The translations under genes were made by a program, and so were the position numbers. A DNA stretch of 12,160 nt from a virus (lineage: Duplodnaviria; Heunggongvirae; Uroviricota; Caudoviricetes). The notes beneath the pieces are model-generated. The model saw nothing but the letters and a program-made list of their open reading frames with translations, searched no databases and was not told the DNA's origin. The stretch lies in IMG/VR virus record IMGVR_UViG_2609459803_000002, positions 1 to 12,160 of that record. One strand, given 5' to 3'. Below are positions 1-12,160 of the stretch, in pieces (the first letter of the stretch is position 1; every line of letters starts with the position of its first letter).

Positions 1-123
1 TGCAAATTCATTATAAACATCATCACTGACAGCCAGAGCATCATCTGGCCATGAATTTGCATTAATGTAATCATCCTTAAGTGCAGGATTCACAAAAATG
101 TTTAAAGATGGACTATAAAACAT
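1..123 (-). CDS. Tail fiber assembly protein (Tfa-like chaperone), N-terminal 41 codons only; gene runs off the window start
   Basis: ATG at 123..121 sits one nt after the tail fiber stop. Own translation MFYSPSLNIFVNPALKDDYINANSWPDDALAVSDDVYNEFA carries the WP.DA..VS..Y.EF N-terminal signature recalled for enterobacterial tail fiber assembly proteins. Absent from the ORF track because it is partial. Confidence 0.5.
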   Translation of the reverse strand, partial: MFYSPSLNIFVNPALKDDYINANSWPDDALAVSDDVYNEFA

Positions 124-124
124 A

Positions 125-763
125 TTACACCCCTATAGCGATATAACGACCTAATACAGCGTTTGCAGCAGTCGCTATGCTTGAAAAACCGCGGAACTGA
201 TTTGATGTAATTGCAGAAGCCGACAGGATTCCTGCGCCTGAAGGTGTATGCCCCACATGACTAACTATCATTCCATAACATGCTGACGGAAAGGCAAAAG
301 GAAAATCGTTAAGATATCCGGCATCTTCACCACCAGACCCACCAAATCTCGCCTGCCCCCACTGAATAATCAGTGTTCTCCGGGAACCTGAAATAATTAA
401 CGGGATCGTTACATACCCATTCAGGCCAATGACACCAGATGCAGTGCCAGCCAGAGATAATTCTCCCAAACCAAGGTTTTCGAGAGCCGTTTTCACGGTG
501 CCATCCGATTTGATATCGCCAAACGGATTCTTGCGGCTTAACAGCAGCGCACGAAGCGCGGTAAGCAGCTGGTCGTGTTGCGCCTTCTCCAGACTAGCAC
601 CGGATGCCTCCACCACGCTGCAAAGCTCCTCCTGCAACATGTCAAAGTAGTCATCATCCAGATCGGTAGCAGGCGTGCCAGTCTGGGGGTTACCACGGGT
701 AAAACCGTTTTTACCCGCGCCGAACTTATCCTTCTGCGCGGTTTTCGTGTCTATACGATGCAT
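125..763 (-). CDS. Phage tail fiber protein, short (212 aa)
   Basis: ORF-track protein ([22 protein letters not shown]...) with Gly/Ser-rich C-terminal half, GGAG ribosome-binding site 6 nt upstream of the ATG, and a tightly coupled tfa-like gene immediately downstream. Family assignment is by context and recall, not by search. Confidence 0.55.
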
Positions 764-1574
764 GGATTACTCCGGATACCGAACCGTTGAGCATCTCGAT
801 AACTTCCCGCCGCTTGTCGTAGCACGGCCCCTCAATGTTGTACCCGGCGGTGGTGATGGCCCACATCAGTGGCTGACGTCGCGCGCCCATCCCGGTAAGC
901 ATCGTGGTATAAAGCGCATCGGTGGCGTGCTCGTGATATTCATCCACCACGGCACAGTGGGGTGATGAACCATCACCGGGGTTACCGATCAGCGGTTCAA
1001 ACCGCGCGCCATCCTCCGGACGGTTCATGTTTGAGGCGTTAACCTCAATCCCGAACGCTTCCGTCAGCATGGGTGTGCGTTTACACATCAGTCGCGCCGG
1101 GCGAAAGACTTCCCACGCCTGTTTCTCTGTCGTGGCACCGGAATACACTTCCGCGCCAAACTCGTTATCACAGGCAAAACAATACAGGGCAACACCGGCA
1201 GAGATTGCCGATTTGCCGTTCTTACGGGGGATTTCGGTATACACCTCCCTGAAGCGGCGCAGCCGGGAGCCTTTATTGACCCAGCCAAACGCACAGCAGA
1301 TCACAAAGAGCTGCCACGGTTCCAGCGTGATGGGCATCCTCTTGAATGCCCACTCCCCCTTGGTGTGTGGCAACAGCTGAATAAATTTCGCGGCCCGTTC
1401 AGCCAGGTCCTTGTCGAAGCGGTAACGAAACGACTTACTTTTTTCCGCCATCAGGTCATCAAGATGGCGCTGGCAGGCCTGAATCACAAACTGGCAGGCC
1501 ACAATCTTTCCGCGCACGACATCACGGGCATACTGATTGGCAGCATTTACGTTGGGGTAAGATTTCCGGCTCAT
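726..1574 (-). pseudogene. Large terminase subunit, N-terminal ATPase domain only (3'-truncated remnant of a roughly 550-aa HK97-type protein)
   Basis: Walker A-like IPRKNGKS and Walker B-like CAVVDEYHE motifs are present. The ORF stops at 282 aa, shortly after the ITTAG motif, with no nuclease domain in any frame; the next gene is the tail fiber. Start overlaps the TerS stop, as is typical. Confidence 0.75.
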
Positions 1575-2065
1575 GATTCGATGATTTTCAGAAACGGGTT
1601 AGTGGCTTTCTTCTGCCCCGCCAGGCCAATCAGACGCTGGCGGCTGCTGGGGTCGAGTCCGAGCATTGCCCCCGTGCTGCTCATCTCGGACTCCTGTTCT
1701 TTCTTGGCGGTCAGCTCCGGATTTTTGACCATGCCACCCATTGCACCGGTGATGGTGTTGCCCTGTCTGGCAATATTTTTCACGGCACGCCGCCAGAACT
1801 CGTAGGCCACGCACCACCGCTCAAGCACCGCGAGGTCAGTCACGCACAGCAGGCCCTGACCGCAGAGTTCTTTGGTTGTCAGTTGCCACATGATCGTGGC
1901 GAGAGGGAGATCTTCTTCAGCGAACCACTCCGGTGGCTCAACACCTTTGATGGGCGTAAAAACAGGTTCATCTTTATTCAGGGCTCGCTTGCCGGGGTTT
2001 CCGGCCAGCGCCTTGCGCGCCGTTGGCTTGGGGCGACGCCCGGACCCCCCCGCCGTTCCAGCCAT
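1571..2065 (-). CDS. Small terminase subunit, P27 family
   Basis: N-terminus [30 protein letters not shown] matches the recalled P27-family signature. Start chosen at ATG 2065..2063 (AGGAG 8 nt upstream) rather than the GTG at 2074 used by the ORF track. Confidence 0.8.
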
Positions 2066-2104
2066 ATGCGGCACTCCTGGTTAAATTTCATTTTTCGCGG
2101 GTAT

Positions 2105-2164
2105 AAAAAAACGATGGGGCGGGCAGTCCGGAAGACGTCAGGTCACAGGGATGTGACCCGCCCC
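2105..2164 (-). other. GC-rich nested inverted repeat between HNH and TerS: candidate cos/packaging site or intrinsic terminator
   Basis: GGGGCGGG (2116-2123) pairs with CCCGCCCC (2157-2164) and encloses the hairpin GTCACA-ggga-TGTGAC (2142-2157). A run of 7 A (2105-2111) gives a U-tract on the minus strand after the structure. Confidence 0.3.
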
Positions 2165-2190
2165 TCCCCTCAGACAGTTGAGAGTTATTA

Positions 2191-2541
2191 TCACTTTAAC
2201 CGTTCACGGACCGTCTTCGCCTTATGACACGGCCAACACAGACTCTGCAGATTACAGTCGGCATCAGTGCCGCCATGCGCTTTAGGGATGATGTGGTCAA
2301 CGGTTTTCGCCTCACGCACCACACCGGCACGCAGACATAACTGACATAAACCTTTGTCACGCTTCAGCACACGCGCGCGGATAGCGTCCCACTTCGAACC
2401 ATAACCGCGCTGATGACGGGACTGACCTGGCTTGTATTGCTTCCAGCCTTCGCTTTTGTGGCTTTCGCAGTAGCCTGACGGGTCTGTGGTTGTAGAGCGG
2501 CAGCCGCGAACACGGCAGGCTTTTGGGGTTCGTGGTGGCAT
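2191..2541 (-). CDS. HNH endonuclease (phage packaging-associated)
   Basis: Cys/His pattern CQLC...VDHIIP...GG...NLQSLCWPCH typical of HNH; GGAG ribosome-binding site 7 nt upstream of ATG 2541; located directly upstream of TerS as in HK97-like phages. Confidence 0.85.
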   Translation of the reverse strand: MPPRTPKACRVRGCRSTTTDPSGYCESHKSEGWKQYKPGQSRHQRGYGSKWDAIRARVLKRDKGLCQLCLRAGVVREAKTVDHIIPKAHGGTDADCNLQSLCWPCHKAKTVRERLK

Positions 2542-2559
2542 TGGTAAGCTCCAATAAAA

Positions 2560-2585
2560 AAGCCACCATCGATTGCTAGTGGCTT
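2560..2585 (-). terminator. Terminator-like hairpin downstream of the orphan gene
   Basis: AAGCCAC (2560-2566) pairs with GTGGCTT (2579-2585) around a 12-nt loop; on the minus strand the stem is followed by a U-run. The stem is short, so strength is uncertain. Confidence 0.3.
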
Positions 2586-2611
2586 AGCATCTACTAATGT
2601 GAAGAGTAGGT

Positions 2612-3370
2612 TTATTTTTTCTTCTTATTTAACTTATCTAAATTGACGGGATCTTTCCCTGTGGCAGCTAAACACCAAAAAGAATAACTCTTTTGCATGA
2701 CATAGGTTCTAATTCTCTCTAATGTTTCATTATATTTTTTCTCAACAACCTGTATCGCATGTTCAAATAAATTAATCATATCAACATGCTCGTCCTCGAC
2801 ACCAATCATGCTCAGTTGTTTTCTATCTGTCACTGCTTGATAAAATGTTTTCCCATTTTTCCTTATTAGTAACAATGAAGTTTCTGCTGACTCATAGTCT
2901 TGGTTGCCGCTATGTGCTGCAAAATTATGCCTGTAGTTAATAATACAGTCATGCAACCCAAAATATTCAGAATCAAGCCAATCACGCTCCATCTTTAACT
3001 TTCTCCCTTTAGCTTCAGAGAAAGCTTTACCATAAAACGTTAGGCTTGCCACAAATAACGCTCTAATTTCACTTGATAAATCTAGATCAAGTATATTCCC
3101 GTATAACTTGCCATCTGTCCTTAATTCGTTTCTCCCTGCCAGTTCATTAGCTATTTGGTACCACTCTTTAGCACTTTTTAAGTCCCTATGAATTAGTGAC
3201 AGTGAAGATGCTCTATCGGCAATACGCCCACTCAATTTTATGCGATCTACAATTTCATTATTGAATGTATAAACCGCTTTAAATTCCCCCGTTTCGGAAT
3301 CAATATAATATTCAACATCTAACCCTTCATATGATTCACACCCGGGACCTTCTAATTTTTTTCTTTTCAT
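2612..3370 (-). CDS. Hypothetical cytoplasmic protein (252 aa), AT-rich cargo gene with an Rx5H motif (possible HEPN-like abortive-infection or toxin protein)
   Basis: Long clean ORF in a visibly AT-richer stretch. Start taken at ATG 3370..3368 (M9 of the ORF-track protein, whose first codon is TTG). Motif YRHNFAAH lies within an otherwise unassignable sequence; no signal peptide or membrane segment is evident. Confidence 0.6.
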   Translation of the reverse strand: MKRKKLEGPGCESYEGLDVEYYIDSETGEFKAVYTFNNEIVDRIKLSGRIADRASSLSLIHRDLKSAKEWYQIANELAGRNELRTDGKLYGNILDLDLSSEIRALFVASLTFYGKAFSEAKGRKLKMERDWLDSEYFGLHDCIINYRHNFAAHSGNQDYESAETSLLLIRKNGKTFYQAVTDRKQLSMIGVEDEHVDMINLFEHAIQVVEKKYNETLERIRTYVMQKSYSFWCLAATGKDPVNLDKLNKKKK

Positions 3371-3451
3371 ATAGAATATCCATATACGTTTCAATTCTCA
3401 GTCAGCATAGTAGAAAAAAAAGATGTCCAGATCCATACATCGAAAGCAATT

Positions 3452-3916
3452 TTAGTTTTCACACTGACTAGAGATATAGTCCTGCAATGCTCTTATCTGT
3501 TTATAACTGATTTCAATTCTCTCTCTGAGGGTGAAATAATCCCGTTGAGCGGTGTCAGTAAGTCGGGGGGCGGTAGCATCATCCAGGCTGGTGGTAATGG
3601 TCGTTGATTGCACTCTCGGGCAACTAGCGGCGAGGAACAGCCGCTTAGTGCCAACAGCAACATCACGCTGAAGCTGTTCAATAGTTGCTTTAGCATTTGC
3701 AAGTTCTCCGGTGTATTTCGCATCGAGCGCAGAAACATCACGCTGGCGCTGCTGCATCTCAGTAATGGTGGCGTTCGCCTGGCTGAGTTTTTCCTTCGCT
3801 TTATCGCGCTGTTCTTTGTAGGCGATGGCGTTATCACGATAATGATTAACAGCCCATGATAGGCAGACGATGGTGCAGATAACCAGAGAGGACAGAATCG
3901 CAGTTACTCTACTCAT
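3452..3916 (-). CDS. Rz: Rz inner-membrane spanin
   Basis: From the internal start [31 protein letters not shown] the protein closely matches recalled lambda Rz (N-terminal membrane segment, coiled-coil body). ATG at 3916..3914 overlaps the endolysin stop. Confidence 0.85.
3493..3696 (-). CDS. Rz1: Rz1 outer-membrane lipoprotein spanin, embedded in the +1 frame of Rz
   Basis: Internal start gives [22 protein letters not shown]... with lipobox LSGC, then the proline-rich [27 protein letters not shown], closely matching recalled lambda Rz1. Confidence 0.75.
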
Positions 3917-4391
3917 ATAGCTGAATTTCTCTGACCGTTCCGCCCGATTCTTTGAATTTTTCAATCAGGCTGTCAACCTTATGTTCGAACTGACCATAAC
4001 CAGCGCCCGGCAATGACGCCCAGATATTGCTGCAACGATCAATAGCCTGACGGATATCGCCGCGATCAATCATCGGTAAAGCACCACGCTCTTTAATCTG
4101 CTGCAATGCCACAGCATCCTGGCTTTTTGGAGAGAAGTCTTTCAGCCCAAGCTGCTTACGGTAAGCATCCCACCAGCGTGAAAGAAGCTGATAACGTCCT
4201 GCGGCTGTTGATTTAAGTTTCGGGTTTAGCGTGACAAGTTTGCGAGGGTGATCGGAGTAATCAGTGAACAGTTCACCTCCGACAATAACGTCATAACCGT
4301 GGTTACGTGTCGGTTGTCGCCCGTTATCCGTTCCTTCTGACCATGCCACCATATCGAGGAAAGCTTTACGCTGGGAATTTAGTACCTGCAT
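3909..4391 (-). CDS. R: Endolysin, lambda R-type lytic transglycosylase
   Basis: [61 protein letters not shown]... is near-identical over most of its length to recalled lambda R. Confidence 0.9.
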
Positions 4392-4394
4392 AAA

Positions 4395-4721
4395 TTACTC
4401 CTTAGAGCCACCAAACTTATTACCGATTACTCTCATTGCAGCCCCACGAATAGCATCGACCCCGATCAGCCCAACGCCGCCACCAATGGCAACAGAAAGA
4501 GATTTAGGCCATCCGACATACTCAAGAGCGGATGCAAAAGTCAGCGTCAGAGCACCACAGAGCAAAATCTCGAGCGTTTTTCGTTTCCAGCCACCACCAC
4601 CGCCAAAATAGGCAATGCGCAAGCCAGCCATAACGATCGACATAATCACTGCGCCCAGCGGTGTGTCTCCACGCCACCAGCTCTGGACCAACTCCAGCCA
4701 GGTATTTGGGTTATGAGGCAT
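4395..4721 (-). CDS. Holin, lambda S-like (three-membrane-segment class I)
   Basis: Sits immediately upstream of the endolysin. Hydrophobic segments and motifs (MAGLRIAYFGGGG; GVDAIRGAAMRVIGNKFGG) line up with lambda S features (MAYLRGRYNGG; GTDSIGSLIKRFAAKKAG). Exact start not resolved. Confidence 0.7.
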   Translation of the reverse strand: MPHNPNTWLELVQSWWRGDTPLGAVIMSIVMAGLRIAYFGGGGGWKRKTLEILLCGALTLTFASALEYVGWPKSLSVAIGGGVGLIGVDAIRGAAMRVIGNKFGGSKE

Positions 4722-4963
4722 TTGTAGTTATCTCTCACCTCGCCGATACAGGAGGTGCAAATTGAGGGAGTACCACGAACCGCAAACCAGAAGCGGAAAC
4801 GTAAAAGAAGCCGAGCCAATGGATAAGTGCTAGATAGACCAAGCCCAACGAATACCAAGGCCCAGAAATGACAAAACCCGCTCGACGGCAGGTTTAAGCT
4901 GTGTGGCGAAGTAACCACTCTTAACAGATTACACGATAAAATGCGGACCGCGTGAGGAAAACT

Positions 4964-5056
4964 ATGGTTTTTTTGAAGCGAATGAGTAAAATCAACGCCA
5001 CTTTGCACATAAGTTATCCACACTGTACGTTTGCAAAATCTCATTGCTCTCTTTGA
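4964..5056 (+). CDS. Small ORF (30 aa, MVFLKRMSKINATLHISYPHCTFAKSHCSL) upstream of the peptidase gene; candidate leader peptide or small protein
   Basis: GAGGA ribosome-binding site 5 nt upstream of ATG 4964; below the ORF-track size cut-off. No family signature. Confidence 0.2.
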   Translation: MVFLKRMSKINATLHISYPHCTFAKSHCSL

Positions 5057-5175
5057 GTTTTGTAAATGCGCTAATTTTTGGACTTTTTTTGCCGATAGAA
5101 TCTAACCACTTGTGTGGTAAGTTCTGAATGAATGTTACCTCTTGGTTTGAAAATTCTTAACATAAGGACATCTGA

Positions 5176-6171
5176 ATGTTTGAGCAGCGTAAAGCCCTGT
5201 ATGCGCAACTGGAACAAGCACGCAATTCAAAAGTATTATGCTATGTAACAGGTGATAGACCAAACCAAGAAGCTCAAATCAGCGCTGATGTATTCGATCT
5301 GTTCGTCAATCATCTTGATGTGATAGGTGATGTTCAAAAAATTAGCCTCGTGCTCTATACGCGAGGCGGCGACACTTTAACAGCATGGAGCCTTGTAAAC
5401 CTGCTTCGTCAGTTTTGTAAAGAACTCGAAATCATAATCCCATCAAAATGCCATAGTTCTGGGACGATAATGTGCCTTGGCGCGAACAACTTGGTTATGA
5501 CCAAGCAGGCAACCTTAGGGCCAATCGATCCAAGTGTGAATACACCACTTAACCCTTCGGCCATAATCAATGGGCAGCCACTTCAACTTCCAGTCAGTGT
5601 TGAAGAAATCAATGGCTATCTTGAAGTAGTTAAGCATGATTTGAGTATCAAAGATGATGCCTCACTTGCACAGATCCTCCTTGCATTAAGTGAAAAGGTT
5701 CATCCCTTGGTACTTGGAAAAGTCTATCGAGCTAAAGCGCAGATTCAAATGCTCGCAAGAAAACTACTGTCTCACCAACTCACTGATAGTGAAAGCATTG
5801 AGAAAATTGTAAGTTTCCTTTGTAGTGATTCTGGTAGCCATGACTACACTATAAATAGGATTGAAGCGGTAAACGATTTAGGTCTTACGGTGGAAAAACC
5901 AGATGAGCACCTTTACGGTCTGATCAAAGAAATTTATGAAGATTTCAAAACTGAGATGCATCTGGGTGAACCTTTTGACCCAAATGCTATCTTAGGAACA
6001 GTTAACCAGGCATCGTACGTATCTGTCAGAAGCATTTTAGAGGCTCCAGACACGTTTTCATATCAATTCCGCACTGAGGGGATGTTACAGCGTTTTCAAG
6101 TTCCAGGCGTCCCAGGTCAGTTCGGCATAAATCATAACCTTATCTCAGAGGGGTGGGCTCGACATGGATAA
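5176..6171 (+). CDS. ClpP/crotonase-fold serine peptidase (SppA / S49 / SDH-proteinase-like), cargo gene
   Basis: AAGGA ribosome-binding site 7 nt upstream of ATG 5176. Segment LVLYTRGGDTLTAWSLVNLL ... IIIPSKCHSSGTIMCLGANNLVMTKQATLGPIDP matches the GG ... (A/S)SxGT ... TLG.I core of ClpP/SppA-fold peptidases. Opposite strand to and AT-richer than the flanking phage genes. Confidence 0.7.
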   Translation: MFEQRKALYAQLEQARNSKVLCYVTGDRPNQEAQISADVFDLFVNHLDVIGDVQKISLVLYTRGGDTLTAWSLVNLLRQFCKELEIIIPSKCHSSGTIMCLGANNLVMTKQATLGPIDPSVNTPLNPSAIINGQPLQLPVSVEEINGYLEVVKHDLSIKDDASLAQILLALSEKVHPLVLGKVYRAKAQIQMLARKLLSHQLTDSESIEKIVSFLCSDSGSHDYTINRIEAVNDLGLTVEKPDEHLYGLIKEIYEDFKTEMHLGEPFDPNAILGTVNQASYVSVRSILEAPDTFSYQFRTEGMLQRFQVPGVPGQFGINHNLISEGWARHG

Positions 6172-6343
6172 CAAATCATCTACAGGTAACTTTGTAGTCT
6201 ATACTAACAGGCATACAACTACAGCTGCGCCTAAGCCAGCAAGCATTCCATCCACTGCTCAAAAAACAAGCAACAATGGCGTCAATGGCTACAGTAACTT
6301 TTTAAGTTGCACCACAGGTTCAGTCATAAAAAACAGTTTCTAA
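6164..6343 (+). CDS. Small S/T/N-rich ORF (59 aa), translationally coupled to the peptidase gene
   Basis: ATG 6164 overlaps the peptidase stop in an ATGGATAA arrangement, with GGTGGG upstream. Own translation MDNKSSTGNFVVYTNRHTTTAAPKPASIPSTAQKTSNNGVNGYSNFLSCTTGSVIKNSF; stop at 6341-6343 lies directly before the terminator hairpin. Could be spurious given its low complexity. Confidence 0.3.
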   Translation: MDNKSSTGNFVVYTNRHTTTAAPKPASIPSTAQKTSNNGVNGYSNFLSCTTGSVIKNSF

Positions 6344-6344
6344 A

Positions 6345-6371
6345 AACAACGGCTCTCTAAGAGCCGTTGTT
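6345..6371. terminator. Bidirectional intrinsic terminator hairpin between the convergent Q and peptidase operons
   Basis: Perfect stem ACAACGGCTC (6346-6355) / GAGCCGTTGT (6361-6370), extendable by one A-T pair, with loop TCTAA. Followed by a U-run on the minus strand and a weaker U-rich tract on the plus strand. Confidence 0.5.
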
Positions 6372-6375
6372 GTAT

Positions 6376-6738
6376 CTATTCACATTCTAAACGTATATCG
6401 AGCATACTAAGGCAACCATCGATAAATCCCTCAGCCATCTGTATCTCAATGCGTATTAGTTTCTCATCCTTTTTACTAGCCTTGGCGAGCTTTCTTTTAG
6501 AGATACCGTATAGGTAATGGGCAACAAGAAGCGAATGTTCGTCCGGCCTTTTTTGCTTTAGACGAGCAAGACAACCTTCAATAATTAATGCATCACTATC
6601 TGAACAAGCCTGACGTGTTTTACTTGTATAGGGAAGAAGCCCTTTAAACCCAGCAGCTATAGGCGAATAATCTACTCCAGAACTATCACTCGCCGCCCAT
6701 GCTCCCCAACGCTCCAGAACCATCTGAATATCACGCAT
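6376..6738 (-). CDS. Late-gene antiterminator Q (phage 82 / QuuD-like family)
   Basis: N-terminus MRDIQMVLERWGAWAA and C-terminus GFIDGCLSMLDIRLE match the recalled QuuD-type signature. Start taken at ATG 6738 (GGAG 7 nt upstream) rather than the TTG at 6753. Position between the nin-like genes and the lysis cassette fits. Confidence 0.8.
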   Translation of the reverse strand: MRDIQMVLERWGAWAASDSSGVDYSPIAAGFKGLLPYTSKTRQACSDSDALIIEGCLARLKQKRPDEHSLLVAHYLYGISKRKLAKASKKDEKLIRIEIQMAEGFIDGCLSMLDIRLECE

Positions 6739-6755
6739 CAACTTTCTCCACAAAA

Positions 6756-7751
6756 TCAGGCCAGCACACCAATCGCCAGCGCACGATCGATAAAACGAAA
6801 TATCAGCTCCAGCTGGGAGCCATACTTCTCTTCAAATGCCACGGTATCCGCATGCAGCTCGTCGTGATGCTTTCTGCACAAAGGCAACACAAAAAGGTCA
6901 TGCGCTTTTGTACCCATTCCACCCTGACCGTGGCCTATCAGGTGGTGGGGATCATCAGCGGGCTTTCCACAACATGCACACGGCTGCGTCTTAACCCAGC
7001 GCGTGTACTTTTCATTAACCCAGCGGCGACGTTTTGGGCGTAACATAAAAGACTCCGGCGACTCCGGCTCCACTTTCAGCGCCAGCACCTTTTTCGCTTT
7101 ATCCTGGATGATGCTGGTGGCAGGAACCGAAGGAACAAGATCACTTTCCCGGGTGACAGACGGCACAACAGGCTTCGGTAATCTCAGTGCCTTACGGGCT
7201 GCACTTTCCGGTAAGGCATCCGCCAGGTCATTACGAACCAGCCACCAGCACAGTTCCGGCATTGTCACAACGTGACTGTCATCAAAACCGAGATCCCGAC
7301 GCACGACAGACAACACCCAGCTGGCACAGTTATCCGTTGCCATTGATTCCAGCCGTTCCGTGAACTGATCGCGCAGCTGGTTATCGCAGTGCCAGCACAG
7401 ACGGATTGCGCCCGGAGCGTGTCGCATTGTGGTCATGTTCTCGCTGTGCCAGTCGGAATGAGGCCACTGGCAGCCTTTTTCACGAAGTAACCAGCTTTCA
7501 AGACATTCCACGCCACCAGCACGACGGATCACCGCCTCATTGCGGAACACAGCCCGAACGGCAGGATCATCCGCCAGTGGTTGTAATGCCGCCGGAACGG
7601 CACCACTGGAAAAAGATGAATAATGTTCCGGCTCAGGCTCCAGCAGGACACGCCCCTGCATAAACAGGGGCATCAGCTCTGAACCGGGTCTGAACAATAC
7701 GATCCCCATACGCGGGGCAATTTCAGGGGTCAGTAGCGCTCTCACGGTCAC
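6756..7751 (-). CDS. DUF968/YdfU-like prophage protein with a C-terminal HNH-like Cys/His cluster
   Basis: C-terminal CACCGKPADDPHHLIGHGQGGMGTKAHDLFVLPLCRKHHDELH; family name is from recall and unverified. GTG start abuts the KilA-N stop; exact start uncertain. Confidence 0.6.
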   Translation of the reverse strand: MTVRALLTPEIAPRMGIVLFRPGSELMPLFMQGRVLLEPEPEHYSSFSSGAVPAALQPLADDPAVRAVFRNEAVIRRAGGVECLESWLLREKGCQWPHSDWHSENMTTMRHAPGAIRLCWHCDNQLRDQFTERLESMATDNCASWVLSVVRRDLGFDDSHVVTMPELCWWLVRNDLADALPESAARKALRLPKPVVPSVTRESDLVPSVPATSIIQDKAKKVLALKVEPESPESFMLRPKRRRWVNEKYTRWVKTQPCACCGKPADDPHHLIGHGQGGMGTKAHDLFVLPLCRKHHDELHADTVAFEEKYGSQLELIFRFIDRALAIGVLA

Positions 7752-7752
7752 C

Positions 7753-8556
7753 TCAATGAACGGTATCGAGCAGCTTTAACAGCTCAGGGAATCGGGATTC
7801 GAAGAAATGCGGCTGCGTCTCACGCGGATTTGCAGGACTGGTGATGTTCTTGCCGAACATGCAGCCTTTCGCCGTCAGCGACCAGAATTTTTTAATGTTG
7901 TTAATTGCGGTACGGCTGTATCGTTCGCGTTGTTCAACGATCCCCAGCTTCGCCATCTGGTGATATGCCTGATTAGCCGTCAGGCGGATACCATACTGCT
8001 TCAGCAGTGCACTCAGCGCCAGCGTCGGGCGGCTTGAGCCATCAGGCGCGTCAGCAGGAGCATCAATGGCATAGCGCGGTGCCAGATTCGGTAAGCCAAC
8101 AGCCTCCTGGAGTTTCTGACAGGCACCAAGCACAGATGAGTTAGACAGGTTTAACTCCCGACGCATAAAGTCCAGCAGAATCACACCAGCCTGCATCTTG
8201 TCAGCAGCCTGCCCGGATAATTTTTCCGGTGCGCTGGTTACCATATCGAAAGTACGGATCACCTTCAGATGGAATGACGGGCTGATCCACATTGCATAGG
8301 CATACACCAGTTCTTTGCAGACATACGTCCCCTGGTTATTTCCGCCACGAATAACGTTAACTGGCTCTATATTGACATTGACCGAGTTGCAAATCTGCAA
8401 CTCGCTTATTAAACGTTCAGTTTGCTCATTGCGGAGCCAGAATGCAGGCTTATGCTTATCCAGAGAACCGGCAGCCCTGTGCAGATCGTTCAGGCTGTAA
8501 CGACCATAAGCATCACGACGAACTTCAATACCATCAATGACCATCAGATTATTCAT
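7753..8556 (-). CDS. KilA-N domain protein (antirepressor-like)
   Basis: N-terminal MNNLMVIDGIEVRRDAYGRYSLNDLHRAAG...KHKPAFWLRNEQTERLISEL resembles the KilA-N DNA-binding domain. Start at ATG 8556 with GAGGAG 9 nt upstream (the ORF track starts at an upstream GTG). Confidence 0.7.
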   Translation of the reverse strand: MNNLMVIDGIEVRRDAYGRYSLNDLHRAAGSLDKHKPAFWLRNEQTERLISELQICNSVNVNIEPVNVIRGGNNQGTYVCKELVYAYAMWISPSFHLKVIRTFDMVTSAPEKLSGQAADKMQAGVILLDFMRRELNLSNSSVLGACQKLQEAVGLPNLAPRYAIDAPADAPDGSSRPTLALSALLKQYGIRLTANQAYHQMAKLGIVEQRERYSRTAINNIKKFWSLTAKGCMFGKNITSPANPRETQPHFFESRFPELLKLLDTVH

Positions 8557-8575
8557 ACTTCGTTTCTCCTCTTGA

Positions 8576-8875
8576 TCAGGCGGCTGCACCCGCCGTTTTC
8601 TCGTACTTACTGATAGTGATCTCGACCTTCCCTTCCGGGATAACCGGTCCCCACTCCACCAGCATTCTTTTCACCTGACTGTCGTCTTCCCACACACCCG
8701 CGTGGGTCAGGGCGTCAAACAGCGCCTTGTTATAGTTGTCCAGATCGCGGATCCGGTTACAGGAAGCGCAATCAGTTGCGAGCGACGGTAGTGTGTTGTT
8801 AAACTGTTCATGCGTTAGTTTCTCCACAGTCACGACACGCCACGGCGCCCGGAGCTGCACACTCGCGGGCGTCAT
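8576..8875 (-). CDS. rusA: RusA-like Holliday junction resolvase
   Basis: RIRDLDNYNKALFDALTHAGVWEDDSQV matches the RusA catalytic-aspartate region (RRDLDN...FDAL...DD). Start taken at the first in-frame ATG (8875); this gives a shorter N-terminus than recalled RusA and overlaps the upstream gene by 68 nt. Confidence 0.6.
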   Translation of the reverse strand: MTPASVQLRAPWRVVTVEKLTHEQFNNTLPSLATDCASCNRIRDLDNYNKALFDALTHAGVWEDDSQVKRMLVEWGPVIPEGKVEITISKYEKTAGAAA

Positions 8876-9404
8876 TACTTTCTGAAATGCAAAAGATTTT
8901 GTAGACCAGTGCTGCATGCTCCTGCAGCTTCGAAATTGAGAGATACAGCTCGTCGTTAATTGCTGTCTTCTCATGCGGTTCCACCACACCGTCTTCGATT
9001 GCCGAACGAATCTGTCTGGAATAACTGCCAATCTGTTCAATGACTTCCAGCAGGCGCTGGTTAATATCGGCGTTGTCCACATCCTCGACGTCAGGAAGAG
9101 ACACAAAGACGCCATTTGCAGACTGCGCCACAGCGTCAGCAATGAAGTGAGTTCCACCAGCACGTTGCAAAATCATTGCCCATCCCAGCGGGAAAATCTG
9201 ATCGCCATCGGCACGAAGGCGGTTAAATAATGCGTTTTCTGTTACATCCAGCCAGTCAGCTGCTTCAGCGTAACCACCCGGCAACGCTGCGATAGTTTTT
9301 CTGACAGCTTTCACGTACCACTCAGGCTGTTTTTCTACTTTCCAGTGATGCTTACCCACGGTTAGCCTCATCGTTCTGTGGTTTCTGTTAATCGATTTAT
9401 CCAT
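8808..9404 (-). CDS. CII-like regulatory protein (phage 186 CII / e14 YmfL type)
   Basis: Central segment YAEAADWLDVTENALFNRLRADGDQIFPLGWAMILQRAGG parallels the helix-turn-helix region recalled for phage 186 CII. Lies directly after cro. Start is ambiguous (ATGs at 9416, 9404, 9371); 9404 overlaps the cro stop as ATGGATAA. Confidence 0.5.
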   Translation of the reverse strand: MDKSINRNHRTMRLTVGKHHWKVEKQPEWYVKAVRKTIAALPGGYAEAADWLDVTENALFNRLRADGDQIFPLGWAMILQRAGGTHFIADAVAQSANGVFVSLPDVEDVDNADINQRLLEVIEQIGSYSRQIRSAIEDGVVEPHEKTAINDELYLSISKLQEHAALVYKIFCISESNDARECAAPGAVACRDCGETNA

Positions 9405-9597
9405 TAGATTTTTCATAAAGCTCAGGTTTAAATGGCAACCGTCCGCAAGTTCTATATGCAGCTTCTGCTGCACGTCCTTTTGGAATTAACTGGCCCGGAC
9501 GGTTTCGCCACTGATAAACGGCTTCAGTTGTTATGCCGAAAAAAGCAGCAACTTTCTCAATACTGCCGAAGTAGCTTTCGATATCGTCAGTTGTCAT
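9397..9597 (-). CDS. Cro-like small helix-turn-helix regulator
   Basis: 66 aa, divergent from the repressor across a 97-bp operator region; GGAGG ribosome-binding site; sequence VAAFFGITTEAVYQWRN is consistent with a helix-turn-helix. Confidence 0.6.
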   Translation of the reverse strand: MTTDDIESYFGSIEKVAAFFGITTEAVYQWRNRPGQLIPKGRAAEAAYRTCGRLPFKPELYEKSNG

Positions 9598-9694
9598 ACG
9601 CCCTCCAAACTAAGTTTTATTAGATGCTAATTACAAATCTATCTTTGGTCAATAAAAACTAAGATTACTTAGCAATTCAAGAAATGGTGCTCCT
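9598..9694. promoter_or_regulatory. Divergent promoter/operator region of the immunity switch
   Basis: Minus-strand promoter candidate TTGACC (9652..9647) -17 nt- TAGCAT (9629..9624) for cro. Operator-like palindromes CTAAG-ATTA-CTTAG (9659-9672) and CTAAG-TTTT-ATTAG (9610-9623) flank it. Confidence 0.5.
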
Positions 9695-10321
9695 ATGGAA
9701 ACGGTTGGTCAGCGTATAAAAGCTCTGAGAAGAGTTACCGGAACGTCCCAGAAAGAATTGGGTAAATTTTGTGGAGTAAGCGACGTTGCTGTGGGGTACT
9801 GGGAGAAAGACATCAATACCCCTGGTGGGGAGGCACTTTCGAAATTAGCGAAGTTCTTCAATACGTCAATAGATTACATTCTTTATGGTGCTGAGTTTGA
9901 AGGCAAACTCGTCACAAACATGCGCAGAGTTCCTGTAATATCGTGGGTTCAGGCTGGGCAGTTTACTGAGTGCAGGGCAGCAGAAGTGTTTAGTGAAGTG
10001 GACAAGTGGGTAGATACATCATTAAAGATTGGTGATAACTCATTTGCATTAGAGGTTAAAGGTGACTCCATGACTAACCCTAATGGCCTCCCAACAATAC
10101 CAGAAGGCGCAACAGTGATTGTAGATCCAGATGCAGAACCTCGTCATGGAAAAATAGTCATCGCTCGACTTGATGGAACAAACGAAGCTACAGTAAAAAA
10201 ATTAGTCATCGATGGCCCTCAAAAGTTTTTAGTGCCATTAAATCCTCGGTATCCCAACATCCCTATCAATGGTAATTGCCTTATCATTGGTGTAGTCAAA
10301 GGAGTTCAATACGAACTCTAA
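9695..10321 (+). CDS. cI-like prophage repressor (N-terminal helix-turn-helix plus C-terminal LexA-like S24 autopeptidase domain)
   Basis: N-terminal QKELGKFCGVSDVAVGYWE helix-turn-helix; Ala-Gly cleavage site in VQAGQF; catalytic Ser in KGDSM and Lys in TVKKL. Confidence 0.9.
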   Translation: METVGQRIKALRRVTGTSQKELGKFCGVSDVAVGYWEKDINTPGGEALSKLAKFFNTSIDYILYGAEFEGKLVTNMRRVPVISWVQAGQFTECRAAEVFSEVDKWVDTSLKIGDNSFALEVKGDSMTNPNGLPTIPEGATVIVDPDAEPRHGKIVIARLDGTNEATVKKLVIDGPQKFLVPLNPRYPNIPINGNCLIIGVVKGVQYEL

Positions 10322-10343
10322 GACCTCTCTTCTCTAACTAAGG

Positions 10344-10376
10344 CACCGAACTAAGAAAAGTTTGGTGTTTTCTCTT
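10344..10376 (+). terminator. Intrinsic terminator downstream of the repressor gene
   Basis: CACCGAACT (10344-10352) pairs with AGTTTGGTG (10359-10367), 9 bp including one G-U, loop AAGAAA, followed by TTTTCTCTT. Confidence 0.5.
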
Positions 10377-10403
10377 GCCATAATAACTAAGTTAAGTTAG
10401 ATT
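10375..10403 (+). promoter_or_regulatory. Sigma70-like promoter candidate with overlapping operator-like palindrome
   Basis: TTGCCA (10375-10380) -17 nt- TAGATT (10398-10403). CTAAG-TTAA-GTTAG (10386-10399) sits in the spacer and resembles the operator motif next to cro. Confidence 0.3.
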
Positions 10404-10527
10404 TTATATCAAAGATAACGAACAGGCAGGACGCCCACGAAGTAGCCGCCTGGGGAATATGAAGTCCAGGATGATTCGTTGAGTCATGTTGTGCCACCAG
10501 GCACTCATGTTAAAGCAGGTGTATGAA

Positions 10528-10803
10528 ATGAAAGTCCAGATTTTAAACAATAACTGTGAAGTCGTTTGGTCATACGACATAGCCGCCCCTGTAGATCAGA
10601 GCGGCGATAGCTGGACCAATGGGAAACATCAGATTATGGCTGGAGTTGTGTTCTCTTTACGCCGTGCTTTGGAACAGGCTGAAGTATTTCCATCAGACCC
10701 TGAATGGAAATGGCCTTTTTCTATTTGTCCAAATTCGGAGAGCACATTTCAGAAAATTGGTCAGAAAGTCGCACTCGAAGAGCATCAGCCAACTGTTTCC
10801 TGA
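10528..10803 (+). CDS. Hypothetical protein (91 aa), first gene outward from the repressor's far side
   Basis: Start at ATG 10528 with AGGTG 8 nt upstream (the ORF track starts at 10486). Not arginine-rich, so not an obvious N-like antiterminator. 3' end overlaps the convergent minus-strand ORF. Confidence 0.4.
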   Translation: MKVQILNNNCEVVWSYDIAAPVDQSGDSWTNGKHQIMAGVVFSLRRALEQAEVFPSDPEWKWPFSICPNSESTFQKIGQKVALEEHQPTVS

Positions 10804-10966
10804 TTTTTTCAGGTAACTCGTCGGCATCGCAGAAACAACAACGCTCGATCATGTTGAAAGCCGATTCGTAGAACTGTTTCTGCTGAGTGTCGCTGAGACA
10901 GGAAAAGAGCGACGTTACGATGATTTTATTAATTGCATTATCAAGTTCTTTTTCATCAAAAGTCAT
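10721..10966 (-). CDS. Hypothetical small protein (81 aa, Cys-containing CCFCDADE segment)
   Basis: AAGGA ribosome-binding site 8 nt upstream of ATG 10966; plausible charged, helical composition; convergent with and overlapping the 3' end of the 10528-10803 ORF by 83 nt. Confidence 0.5.
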   Translation of the reverse strand: MTFDEKELDNAINKIIVTSLFSCLSDTQQKQFYESAFNMIERCCFCDADELPEKIRKQLADALRVRLSDQFSEMCSPNLDK

Positions 10967-11220
10967 TTGATTTTCCTTTTATGTATACGGGCTTAAAAGG
11001 ATACCACCGAGCCTGAAGTGGTGAAAAGACAGGCACATAACAGCTAAGTATTTTCAACCAGAGAGAATCCTTAGCGTTGTGGTGAATGCGGCTCAGCGCA
11101 CGCGGGTTAAGGTTGAGGCTGACAGTCGACCTTCTGTAGATACCCACCCGCCTGGTGTGCAACCTTCGCCAGGCACCGGGAGGCACCCGGCACCACAACT
11201 TTATGCTGTGTGTAGTCCTG

Positions 11221-11267
11221 GCGGTACCAGTTTGTACCCTTGCTTCCGGCTGGTACCGCTCTTTTTA
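11221..11267 (+). terminator. Terminator-like hairpin inside the GC-rich noncoding island
   Basis: GCGGTACCAG (11221-11230) pairs with CTGGTACCGC (11250-11259) around a 19-nt loop, followed by TCTTTTT. Confidence 0.35.
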
Positions 11268-11403
11268 CAAAACAGAGAAGAGCATCACCGGACGACGGGC
11301 TCATAAACCAATCCATCCGGGCGGCTGCCACCGCAGGTGTTCTTCTCTGTTTTGTGGAGAAACTAATCGGCCTTGCAGGGTCGATATGATGAGGAGCAGC
11401 AAA

Positions 11404-11766
11404 ATGGCTAGCGAACGCAGTACTGATGTGCAGGCATTTATCGGGGAGCTGGACGGCGGCGTATTTGAAACCAAAATCGGCGCAGTTCTCAGTGAAGTCG
11501 CTTCCGGTGTGATGAACACGAAAACCAAAGGTAAGGTCTCACTCAACCTGGAAATCGAACCATTTGATGAGAACCGTGTGAAAATCAAACACAAACTCTC
11601 ATATGTTCGCCCGACTAACCGCGGGAAAATTTCCGAAGAAGACACCACCGAAACGCCGATGTATGTCAATCGCGGTGGTCGCCTGACTATTCTGCAGGAA
11701 GACCAGGGACAGTTACTGACTCTTGCCGGTGAACCTGACGGAAAACTCCGCGCAGCAGGTCATTAA
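11404..11766 (+). CDS. Conserved prophage protein of unknown function (120 aa; possibly YfdP-like)
   Basis: Start at ATG 11404 with GAGGAG 7 nt upstream; the ORF-track extension upstream of this is GC-rich junk-like sequence. YfdP resemblance rests on recalled size and neighbour only. Confidence 0.6.
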   Translation: MASERSTDVQAFIGELDGGVFETKIGAVLSEVASGVMNTKTKGKVSLNLEIEPFDENRVKIKHKLSYVRPTNRGKISEEDTTETPMYVNRGGRLTILQEDQGQLLTLAGEPDGKLRAAGH

Positions 11767-11831
11767 TATCGTTCTTAATTAACTGATTATTTATCTCATC
11801 ACTGAATATCTTTATATAGTGAGGACTTATT

Positions 11832-12160
11832 ATGTCTCAGAACTTAGACGCAACCGCAATTAATCAAATCCATGCCCTTATTTCTGCTCAGAGTGTTAAT
11901 GAAATTATCAGTAAGATTGGTGCCGATGCTGTGGCATTGCCTGAGAATTTCCGCATTCATGATCTGGAAAAATTTAATTTAAATCGCTTCCGTTTCCGTG
12001 GTGCGCTTTCCACTGCCAGCATCGATGACTTTACCCGTTATTCTAAAGATCTTGCAGATGAAGGCACCCGCTGCTTTATCGATGCTGATAATATGCGTGC
12101 CGTCAGTGTGCTTAACCTGGGTACTATTGATGAACCAGGTCACGCAGATAACACCGCCAC
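11832..12160 (+). CDS. Conserved prophage protein of unknown function, N-terminal part (possibly YfdQ/DUF2303-like); runs off the window end
   Basis: ATG 11832 with GAGGA 6 nt upstream. Own translation [110 protein letters not shown] has no stop within the window. Not in the ORF track because it is partial. Confidence 0.6.

Follow-up and report, generated by a model that had tools for sequence, protein, structure and literature searches.

Known RusA proteins and deletions with fixed endpoints

The RusA protein of Escherichia coli (YbcP, prophage DLP12; PDB 1Q8R / 2H8C) cleaves Holliday junctions and suppresses ruv mutations. It is a homodimer, the monomer of which consists of a four-stranded mixed sheet flanked by two helices; catalysis needs D70, D72, K76, and D90/D91, and the DNA is contacted by S13, loop 15-28 (including R19-H26), and R35 (PMC1636454). 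We analyzed a 12,160-nucleotide (nt) stretch of Caudoviricetes DNA (IMG/VR record IMGVR_UViG_2609459803_000002, positions 1 to 12,160; referred to here as the window), in which an earlier note, made from the sequence alone, had reported a RusA-like resolvase with a short N terminus. The open reading frame (ORF) in question was confirmed on the minus strand, with an ATG at 8875, a stop codon at 8576-8578, and a length of 99 amino acids (aa). Residues 41 to 90 of the ORF correspond to residues 67 to 116 of E. coli RusA (54% identity), whereas residues 1 to ~65 of RusA have no counterpart and are replaced by 39 unrelated residues. The comparisons described below leave little doubt that the ORF is a remnant of rusA left by a deletion in a decayed prophage (i.e., a chimeric pseudogene), which as such is a known kind of object, a pseudogene of prophage decay. 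Judged by its junction, the deletion belongs to a recurrent, nucleotide-precise class in which the same TA dinucleotide of rusA has been used repeatedly and independently.

The nearest likenesses of the ORF are the sister RusA proteins of LZHX12 (WP_000767114.1), PCP06173 (WP_065786526.1), and strain 300033 (WP_033866600.1), which agree with it at 59 or 60 of the 60 C-terminal residues. Their genes share the downstream neighbors found in the window (kilA-N, DUF968, and Q) but differ in having kept the 69 N-terminal codons. A partial rusA of swine enterotoxigenic E. coli (ETEC; IGX36_RS20765 in K_EC180, and five other genomes) has a rusA-side endpoint identical to that of the window, and its remnant also adjoins ymfL. 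In all six genomes, the Prokaryotic Genome Annotation Pipeline (PGAP) labels this gene "RusA ... incomplete; missing N-terminus." The ETEC deletion is independent of the one in the window: its ymfL allele is 87.6% identical, its partner site (ACGGT TA TTTGCC) lies 31 bp nearer to ymfL, and its junction overlap is a perfect 7-bp CGGTTAT. The yfdL/yfdM junction of the E. coli K-12 prophage CPS-53 (KpLE1) is comparable in being a large deletion with a TA crossover in a related prophage; it differs in that rusA is not a partner, rusA and everything up to the tail-fiber gene having been deleted in K-12.

Deletions with a fixed endpoint are known from quasi-site recombination by Cin/Gin-type serine recombinases, for which the same central dinucleotide is required, and from deletions anchored at rolling-circle nick sites. 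The rusA TA resembles such enzyme cleavage sites in presenting one strong symmetric site, many weak partners, and an obligatory identity of 2 bp, but it differs from these systems in giving only deletions and no inversions. Its sequence is not known to resemble the gix, hix, or cix sites.

Comparison of the ORF with RusA

Alignment of the ORF from its ATG to the Pfam profile PF05866 (RusA) gave a partial rather than a complete domain, the opposite of the outcome that the earlier note had named as refuting its view: only residues 34 to 88 matched, at profile positions 76 to 123/124 (E = 1.5e-11). Likewise, E. coli RusA (PDB 1Q8R) aligned to the ORF over its own residues 60 to 116 only. The ORF therefore does not hold a complete RusA domain (~120 aa, with a four-stranded sheet and two helices), and it has neither the N-terminal motif (LPWPPS / LPFPPS) nor the N-terminal DNA-contacting residues (S13, loop 15-28, and R35). 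The catalytic residues are present, with D44, D46, K50, and D64/D65 of the ORF corresponding to D70, D72, K76, and D90/D91 of RusA. The catalytic Asp region recognized previously (RDLDN...DD, within the RusA-like stretch RDLDNYNKALFDAL...WEDD) was thus confirmed, as was the 68-nt overlap with the upstream gene ymfL (stop codon at 8808-8810).

The N terminus had rightly been flagged as abnormal, given that only residues 40 to 99 of the ORF are RusA. However, the protein is not ~20 residues shorter than RusA, as had been estimated; instead, ~69 N-terminal RusA residues are gone and 39 unrelated residues have been substituted. The string LRAPWRVV (residues 8 to 15), which had been taken for a loose form of the PWPPS motif, is the 3' end of ymfL translated in another frame, and its resemblance to the RusA motif is evidently a coincidence.

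An open frame, an ATG start, and conserved equivalents of D70, D72, K76, and D90/D91 would all suit a working RusA from a divergent subfamily in which the N terminus is short or different. This reading is nonetheless very unlikely. Residues 40 to 99 match the canonical full-length 129-aa RusA at 59/60 or 60/60 positions and are thus up to 100% identical to ordinary RusA proteins with canonical N termini, while residues 1 to 39 have no RusA signal and equal out-of-frame ymfL DNA. Such a protein would also be without its N-terminal contacts to DNA and half of the RusA fold (PMC1636454).

Origin of the ORF by deletion

The window was compared by BLAST with 5,426 complete E. coli genomes. Positions 6692-8759 aligned to positions 1393-3454 of the E. 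coli LZHX12 locus (L001) with 96.8% identity. The match to rusA and kilA-N stopped at 8759, and a block formed by ymfL, cro, and cI (99.9% identity) began at 8753; window DNA upstream of 8759 shared 99% identity with the ymfL region of its relatives. Sequence collinear with LZHX12 flanks a 944-bp gap in the window, and the 944 bp of LZHX12 missing there consist of two gene fragments, a DUF4222 gene, and nt 1 to 206 of a rusA that has 129 codons. In the intact relatives CFSAN061762 (L006) and QDFD216 (L158), the two breakpoints are ~2.25 to 2.9 kb apart, and the gene order is cro, ymfL, DUF4222, an HTH replication gene, yfdN/PerC, (N6-methyltransferase), a small LexA-like gene, rusA, kilA-N, DUF968, and Q. 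The full-length 129-aa RusA of LZHX12 and PCP06173 (L004) starts with MKLILPFPPSVNTYW... and matches the Pfam profile completely (positions 1 to 123/124), and the full-length relatives carry the canonical N terminus LPFPPSVNTYW. Identity between these proteins and the window starts at N70, from which point ORF residues 40 to 99 equal the 60 C-terminal residues of RusA (60/60 in L002 and L004; 59/60 in L001).

The ORF can accordingly be divided into two parts, both on the minus strand. The rusA 3' remnant (8576..8758) comprises codons N70 to A129 of the 129-aa RusA (i.e., ORF residues 40 to 99) plus the stop codon at 8576-8578. The 39-codon leader (MTPASVQLRAPWRVVTVEKLTHEQFNNTLPSLATDCASC; 8759..8875) is made up of the 3' end of ymfL in an alternative frame (8808-8875) and a spacer (8760-8807). 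The leader ATG and the same 39 codons are also present in L001 and L006, where the frame stops after 52 codons and is unannotated.

We conclude that one deletion joined a site 49 bp past the ymfL stop codon (CCGG TA CAGGAAG) to a site inside rusA (CCGGT TA TCCGGA), with the crossover in the TA common to both. The N terminus of the ORF is abnormal because this deletion took the whole replication module and rusA codons 1 to 69 (the 5' 206 nt and the upstream genes). The remaining 60 rusA codons happened to follow, in frame, an ATG located within ymfL in the other frame, giving the 99-codon ORF; by chance, one deletion in three is expected to be in frame with the leader ATG. Direct observation shows where the homology begins and ends, how the junction and both parents read, and that the N-terminal coding part is absent; nothing contradicts the remnant reading.

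An artifact of assembly, or a chimera, is another highly improbable origin of the junction. None of the 5,426 complete E. coli genomes contains the contiguous junction, searches of genome, metagenome, and viral contig collections did not find its 33-nt string, and no record of the exact 99-aa protein was found; the absence of the exact junction from the complete genomes and the three contig collections would favor an artifact. However, the junction is not an assembly error, because the same junction is carried by the independent Logan assembly ERR5014426 (L159; protein P0011), the prophage of which is 95.8% identical. This assembly came to light through a protein search only. Furthermore, complete genomes show analogous junctions at the same nucleotide, and a repeat of 2 to 7 nt is too short to collapse an assembly. 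Weakest of all, with practically no probability left to it, is a frameshifted or non-ATG rusA with its N-terminal coding sequence nearby: the frame is open upstream to a GTG at 9163 (a 195-aa ORF), but this longer translation gives the same partial Pfam match and no additional RusA homology, tblastn with full-length RusA proteins finds the C-terminal part only, with no frame of the 12-kb window coding for a RusA N terminus, and the DNA upstream of 8759 is, as stated, that of the ymfL region. The three causes offered by the earlier note for the unusual N terminus (a non-ATG start, a frameshift, and a divergent subfamily) are therefore all wrong, although "pseudogene" was the correct half of its "frameshifted pseudogene."

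As a rusA remnant, the ORF lacks strand beta-1, the DNA-contacting loop 15-28, helix alpha-1, and the strand before Asp70, i.e., everything before residue ~65 of E. coli RusA. With half of its fold and its N-terminal contacts to DNA lost, the 99-aa product is most likely neither folded nor active. Reading by eye, we found no Shine-Dalgarno-like sequence at a usable distance before the leader ATG (...TTTCAGAAAGTA ATG), and the ORF is probably not translated because it has no ribosome-binding site. Some points have to be set against this account. The ancestral state was reconstructed from relatives of 96 to 99% identity; the lack of expression and the lack of activity are both what we infer from sequence; and, with all catalytic residues kept and the ORF open, a residual or altered activity may formally be possible.

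Recurrent breaks at one TA dinucleotide of rusA

The crossover TA lies at 8758..8759, inside CCGGTTA (8753-8759), and was placed by comparing three sequences, the window and its two parental sides as found in L001 and L006. In intact rusA (L001:3443-3466), it is the center of TCCGGT-TA-TCCGGA. The rusA parent reads ...GATCGCGGATCCGGT / TA / TCCGGAGG..., the ymfL-side parent reads ...TTTTCCACCCGG / TA / CAGGAAGCGC..., and the window junction reads ...GGATCCGGT / TA / CAGGAAGCGC.... As in a microhomology-mediated deletion, there is a short direct repeat (CCGGTTA versus CCGG-TA), one copy of which was kept. The endpoints are not of the scattered, non-reused kind that marks ordinary illegitimate deletion.

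Recurrence was tested because the six ETEC genomes show the same rusA endpoint by an independent deletion. A scan with the 22-nt rusA sequence up to and including the TA, allowing any next base other than the intact T, detected nine IMG/VR contigs with six different right-hand sequences, plus three metagenome contigs that repeated two of these types. Analogous scans at four control positions, two on each side of the TA at distances of 10 and 20 nt, yielded no rearrangement, only 11 point variants or nothing. If six events were spread evenly over the five positions, the probability of all six falling at the pre-chosen one would be ~6e-5. A mirror scan with the rusA 5' half from the TA detected seven contigs with six junction types, one of which also occurs in complete genomes (e.g., B2C).

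Two samples were drawn without reference to the TA. The first consisted of 120 IMG/VR contigs picked only by a 26-mer located 37 nt away; the rusA rearrangements in it were two junctions at the TA (L012 and L068) and one 24-bp internal deletion elsewhere (L127), in addition to a +1 frameshift in L066 and L083. The second was a search of the C-terminal 60 aa against 5.8 billion proteins, in which twelve chimeric or truncated proteins switched partner exactly before N70 (P0001, P0002, P0003, P0004, P0006, P0008, P0009, P0011, P0012, P0013, P0014, and P0017). Clearly different breakpoints were seen in P0026, P0042, and P0055, and three more were unclear. Taken over IMG/VR, metagenomes, complete E. 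coli genomes, and Logan assemblies, at least 18 upstream-directed and at least 6 downstream-directed junction types (24 in total) are located at the rusA TA; these counts are of junction types and not rates.

The rusA allele shows other forms of decay as well: an internal stop in CFSAN061762 (L006:3560-3955), an extra A that shifts the frame (+1) 7 nt from the TA (L066 and L083), a 24-bp in-frame deletion between CCGCGCT repeats (L127), and an internal deletion and LexA-like::RusA fusions spanning the hot site (P0055, P0026, and P0042). Draft contigs of different projects start at ATAACCGG, one base before the TA (L170:1-10 and L171:1-10; P0010, with 52 member sequences). No element end was present in the P0010 contigs that start at the TA, and many genomes may hold two rusA copies that diverge there. 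In E. coli B2C (L147 3886-4012; also L149, L153, and 16 E. coli records), the downstream-directed junction abuts a truncated IS66 copy. This junction (...CCCGTC TA TCCGG) lacks the GTAAGCG-type terminal repeat that is present at the other end of the IS66 copy.

Partner sites

The parent of the partner site was found for 17 of 18 upstream-directed types and for 2 of 6 downstream-directed types. TA was present at the crossover in all 19 partners with a clear parent. The sequence shared with the rusA site was just the 2-bp TA in 13 of 17 upstream-directed events, and several partners shared 5 to 7 nt (CGGT(T)A) with it; an example of a partner is CCACCCGGTACAGGAAGC. Every one of the 17 upstream-directed partners, like one of the downstream-directed partners (L154), is in direct orientation at 0.4 to 8 kb from the rusA site, and no inversions were seen among the junctions with mapped partners.

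The partners also resemble the rusA site beyond the TA. On the retained side, partner half-sites agreed with the rusA half-sites at 2.24 positions, compared with 1.26 for control TAs drawn from the same region (permutation p ~1e-4). Read outward from the TA, 48 half-sites gave the consensus N-C-(C/G)-G, with C at position 2 in 56% (28% in controls) and G at position 4 in 50% (21% in controls). CCG or CGG occurred within 5 nt of the TA in 16 of 46 partner half-sites versus 7% of controls, for which the p value of 7e-8 is optimistic given that the statistic was chosen post hoc.

Partner sites are reused, and they also recombine with one another at TA. An internal deletion in LZHX12 (L001:3875-3880) joins partner sites T7 and T1. 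PCP06173 carries two deletions (junctions at L004:3037-3042 and 3347-3349), the first between T7 and the window's own partner site and the second between GGTTAA TA TCGGCG and partner site P12. In K-12 CPS-53, the yfdL/yfdM deletion joins CCACGGG TA AAACCG of the tail-fiber gene to GCGGCTG TA CGGGGG, and the latter, on the yfdM side, is the very site that recombined with the rusA TA in L162. The resulting CCACGGG TA CGGGGG is located at 430-450 of L169 (E. coli K-12 strain HST04), and the parents are represented by L157 and L098. A further TA junction is found at L002:3795-3800, with a left-hand parent that is unclear in the reference allele.

The window itself has a second deletion junction (774-778), with the TA at 777..778, that joins a tail-fiber module (1-778; a gp53-like gene at 125-763 and the end of ymfQ) to the middle of terL. 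The tail-side parent is CTCCGGA TA TTTAAA, the terL-side parent is GTTGGG TA CCGAAC, and the window reads CTCCGGA TA CCGAAC; the 9-mer TATCCGGAG is common to the rusA site and the retained half of this junction. The deletion at 777-778 took out every head and tail gene, and the terL ORF (726-1574) retains only the ATPase domain.

Possible causes of the recurrent breaks

The rusA site has the form of a serine-recombinase-type site, TCCGG-T[TA]T-CCGGA, with inverted half-sites and an identical central TA, which is consistent with, and no proof of, a crossover with a 2-bp stagger. We tentatively suggest that the rusA TA could be the preferred site of an undescribed breakage-and-rejoining activity, of the phage or of the host, that disables E. 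coli prophages of the e14/SfV/CPS-53 type by recurrent deletions. DNA would be broken or exchanged at the symmetric rusA site with a 2-bp overlap, and the broken site would be rejoined to weaker look-alike sites of roughly the form CSG-N-TA-N-CSG; a recombinase or nuclease cutting with a 2-nt stagger would yield such junctions. The events look like breakage and rejoining because the site is symmetric, the endpoint is exact in both directions, the 2-bp identity is obligatory, and the partners are reused and bear the motif.

Several points limit this reading. A twentieth partner, L150, has only a divergent parent, which is without the TA. A third TCCGGATA site, of which there are 65 copies in the local loci, showed no rearrangement, and in 1,487 E. 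coli records the tail-fiber CTCCGGATA site used in the window's second junction did not recur as an endpoint. Scans anchored at the TA find events at the TA only, which places the weight on the control positions and the two unbiased samples. No candidate enzyme was identified, and the left end of the window stops before any invertase gene.

It is also conceivable, if doubtful, that no dedicated enzyme is involved and that the deletions arise by spontaneous illegitimate recombination (replication arrest or template switching, or end joining) favored by a small local palindrome or hairpin that has a flexible TA step, together with short imperfect homology between the sites. The direct orientation of the mapped partners with no inversion seen, the 5 to 7 nt (CGGT(T)A) that several partners share with the rusA site, and the existence of deletions that span the rusA TA (P0026 and P0042) are in line with this. 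In contrast, the endpoint is nucleotide-precise whichever way the deletion extends, 13 of 17 upstream-directed events have only the TA as shared sequence, a small set of partner sites is used repeatedly and its members recombine with each other, and junctions were absent at the four neighboring control positions. The TCCGG/TTAT/CCGGA hairpin is weak (-5.2 kcal/mol; z ~ -1). A hairpin was rejected as the cause of the hot spot, being no stabler than shuffled sequences.

A transposable element that duplicates TA at CSG-N-TA-N-CSG targets, followed by an adjacent deletion or recombination between two copies and then by precise excision, is an improbable cause. Transposases typically choose targets with a symmetric consensus about a dinucleotide that is duplicated, and one downstream-directed junction adjoins the truncated IS66 copy. 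However, no element end was found in the 24 rusA TA junction types or in approximately six related junctions examined, the B2C junction sequence is not an insertion sequence terminus (no GTAAGCG-type repeat), and there are no inversions, though intramolecular transposition should give them. The sites are also unlike CTAG, the preference of IS630. Other systems were set aside because their sites or geometry do not seem to fit: Din-family invertase sites, XerCD/dif, the integron attC G/TT crossover, gyrase and topoisomerase I consensus sites, IS630 CTAG targets, REP/RAYT, rolling-circle nick sites, and the 5'-CC cleavage preference of RusA itself.

The site sequence appears in no paper of the searchable literature, in which we also found nothing relevant on deletion hot spots or on pseudo-sites of serine recombinases. 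We found no description of the breakpoint class in that literature, which is no proof that it is undescribed.

The prophage around the remnant

The window is a decayed lambdoid prophage of the e14/SfV/CPS-53 kind. Upstream of the remnant, ymfL (8808..9359, minus strand; Pfam PF06892) is intact and encodes a CII/CP76-like regulator of 183 aa from a GTG; PGAP annotates this gene in L001 and L006, where it is 99% identical to that of the window. It is followed by a cro-like gene (9397-9597, minus strand; Pfam P22_Cro) and a cI/LexA-like repressor gene (9695-10321, plus strand; Peptidase_S24 and HTH_3), and this immunity region (9397..10321) places the remnant in a lambdoid early operon. Downstream, the KilA-N gene (7753..8556, minus strand; Pfam PF04383), the ATG of which at 8556 is preceded by GGAG, is the normal neighbor of rusA, the order being the same in L001, L002, L003, L004, L006, and L158. 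Next come a DUF968/HNH gene (6756-7751, minus strand), with a weak HNH-nuclease-like match, and the antiterminator gene Q (6376-6753). The DUF968/HNH gene is two genes downstream of rusA in every relative and is the only nuclease-like gene of no known role near the rusA site; a link to the breakage would be a mere guess.

Pfam searches also identified a lysis cassette, an HNH endonuclease gene, terS, the ATPase-only terL, and a tail-fiber gene. Two ORFs of the late region are probable cargo: a ClpP-like SDH-type serine protease gene (5176-6171, plus strand), which is opposite to its neighbors between Q and the holin gene, and a 260-aa ORF without a Pfam match (2612-3394, minus strand) between the spanin gene and the HNH endonuclease gene. 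The window contains no Rfam family and no tRNA. With the replication module gone and the second deletion at 777-778, the prophage is clearly defective.

Implications

For annotation, the ORF itself should be recorded as a rusA pseudogene fragment missing the N terminus rather than as a resolvase, and the strain should not be credited with a Holliday-junction-resolving function on its account. Prophage decay is usually viewed as random deletion plus selection. Here, many independent deletions in one prophage family share one dinucleotide and a small, reused set of partners with a common symmetric motif. If a breakage activity does act at the rusA TA, the truncated rusA of the window and the yfdL/yfdM junction of K-12 CPS-53 would be two of its products. 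An enzyme, if responsible, would constitute a defined mechanism of prophage inactivation and would also explain junctions in well-studied cryptic prophages, K-12 CPS-53 among them; if there is no enzyme, the rusA TA would be an unusually sharp natural hot spot for illegitimate recombination.

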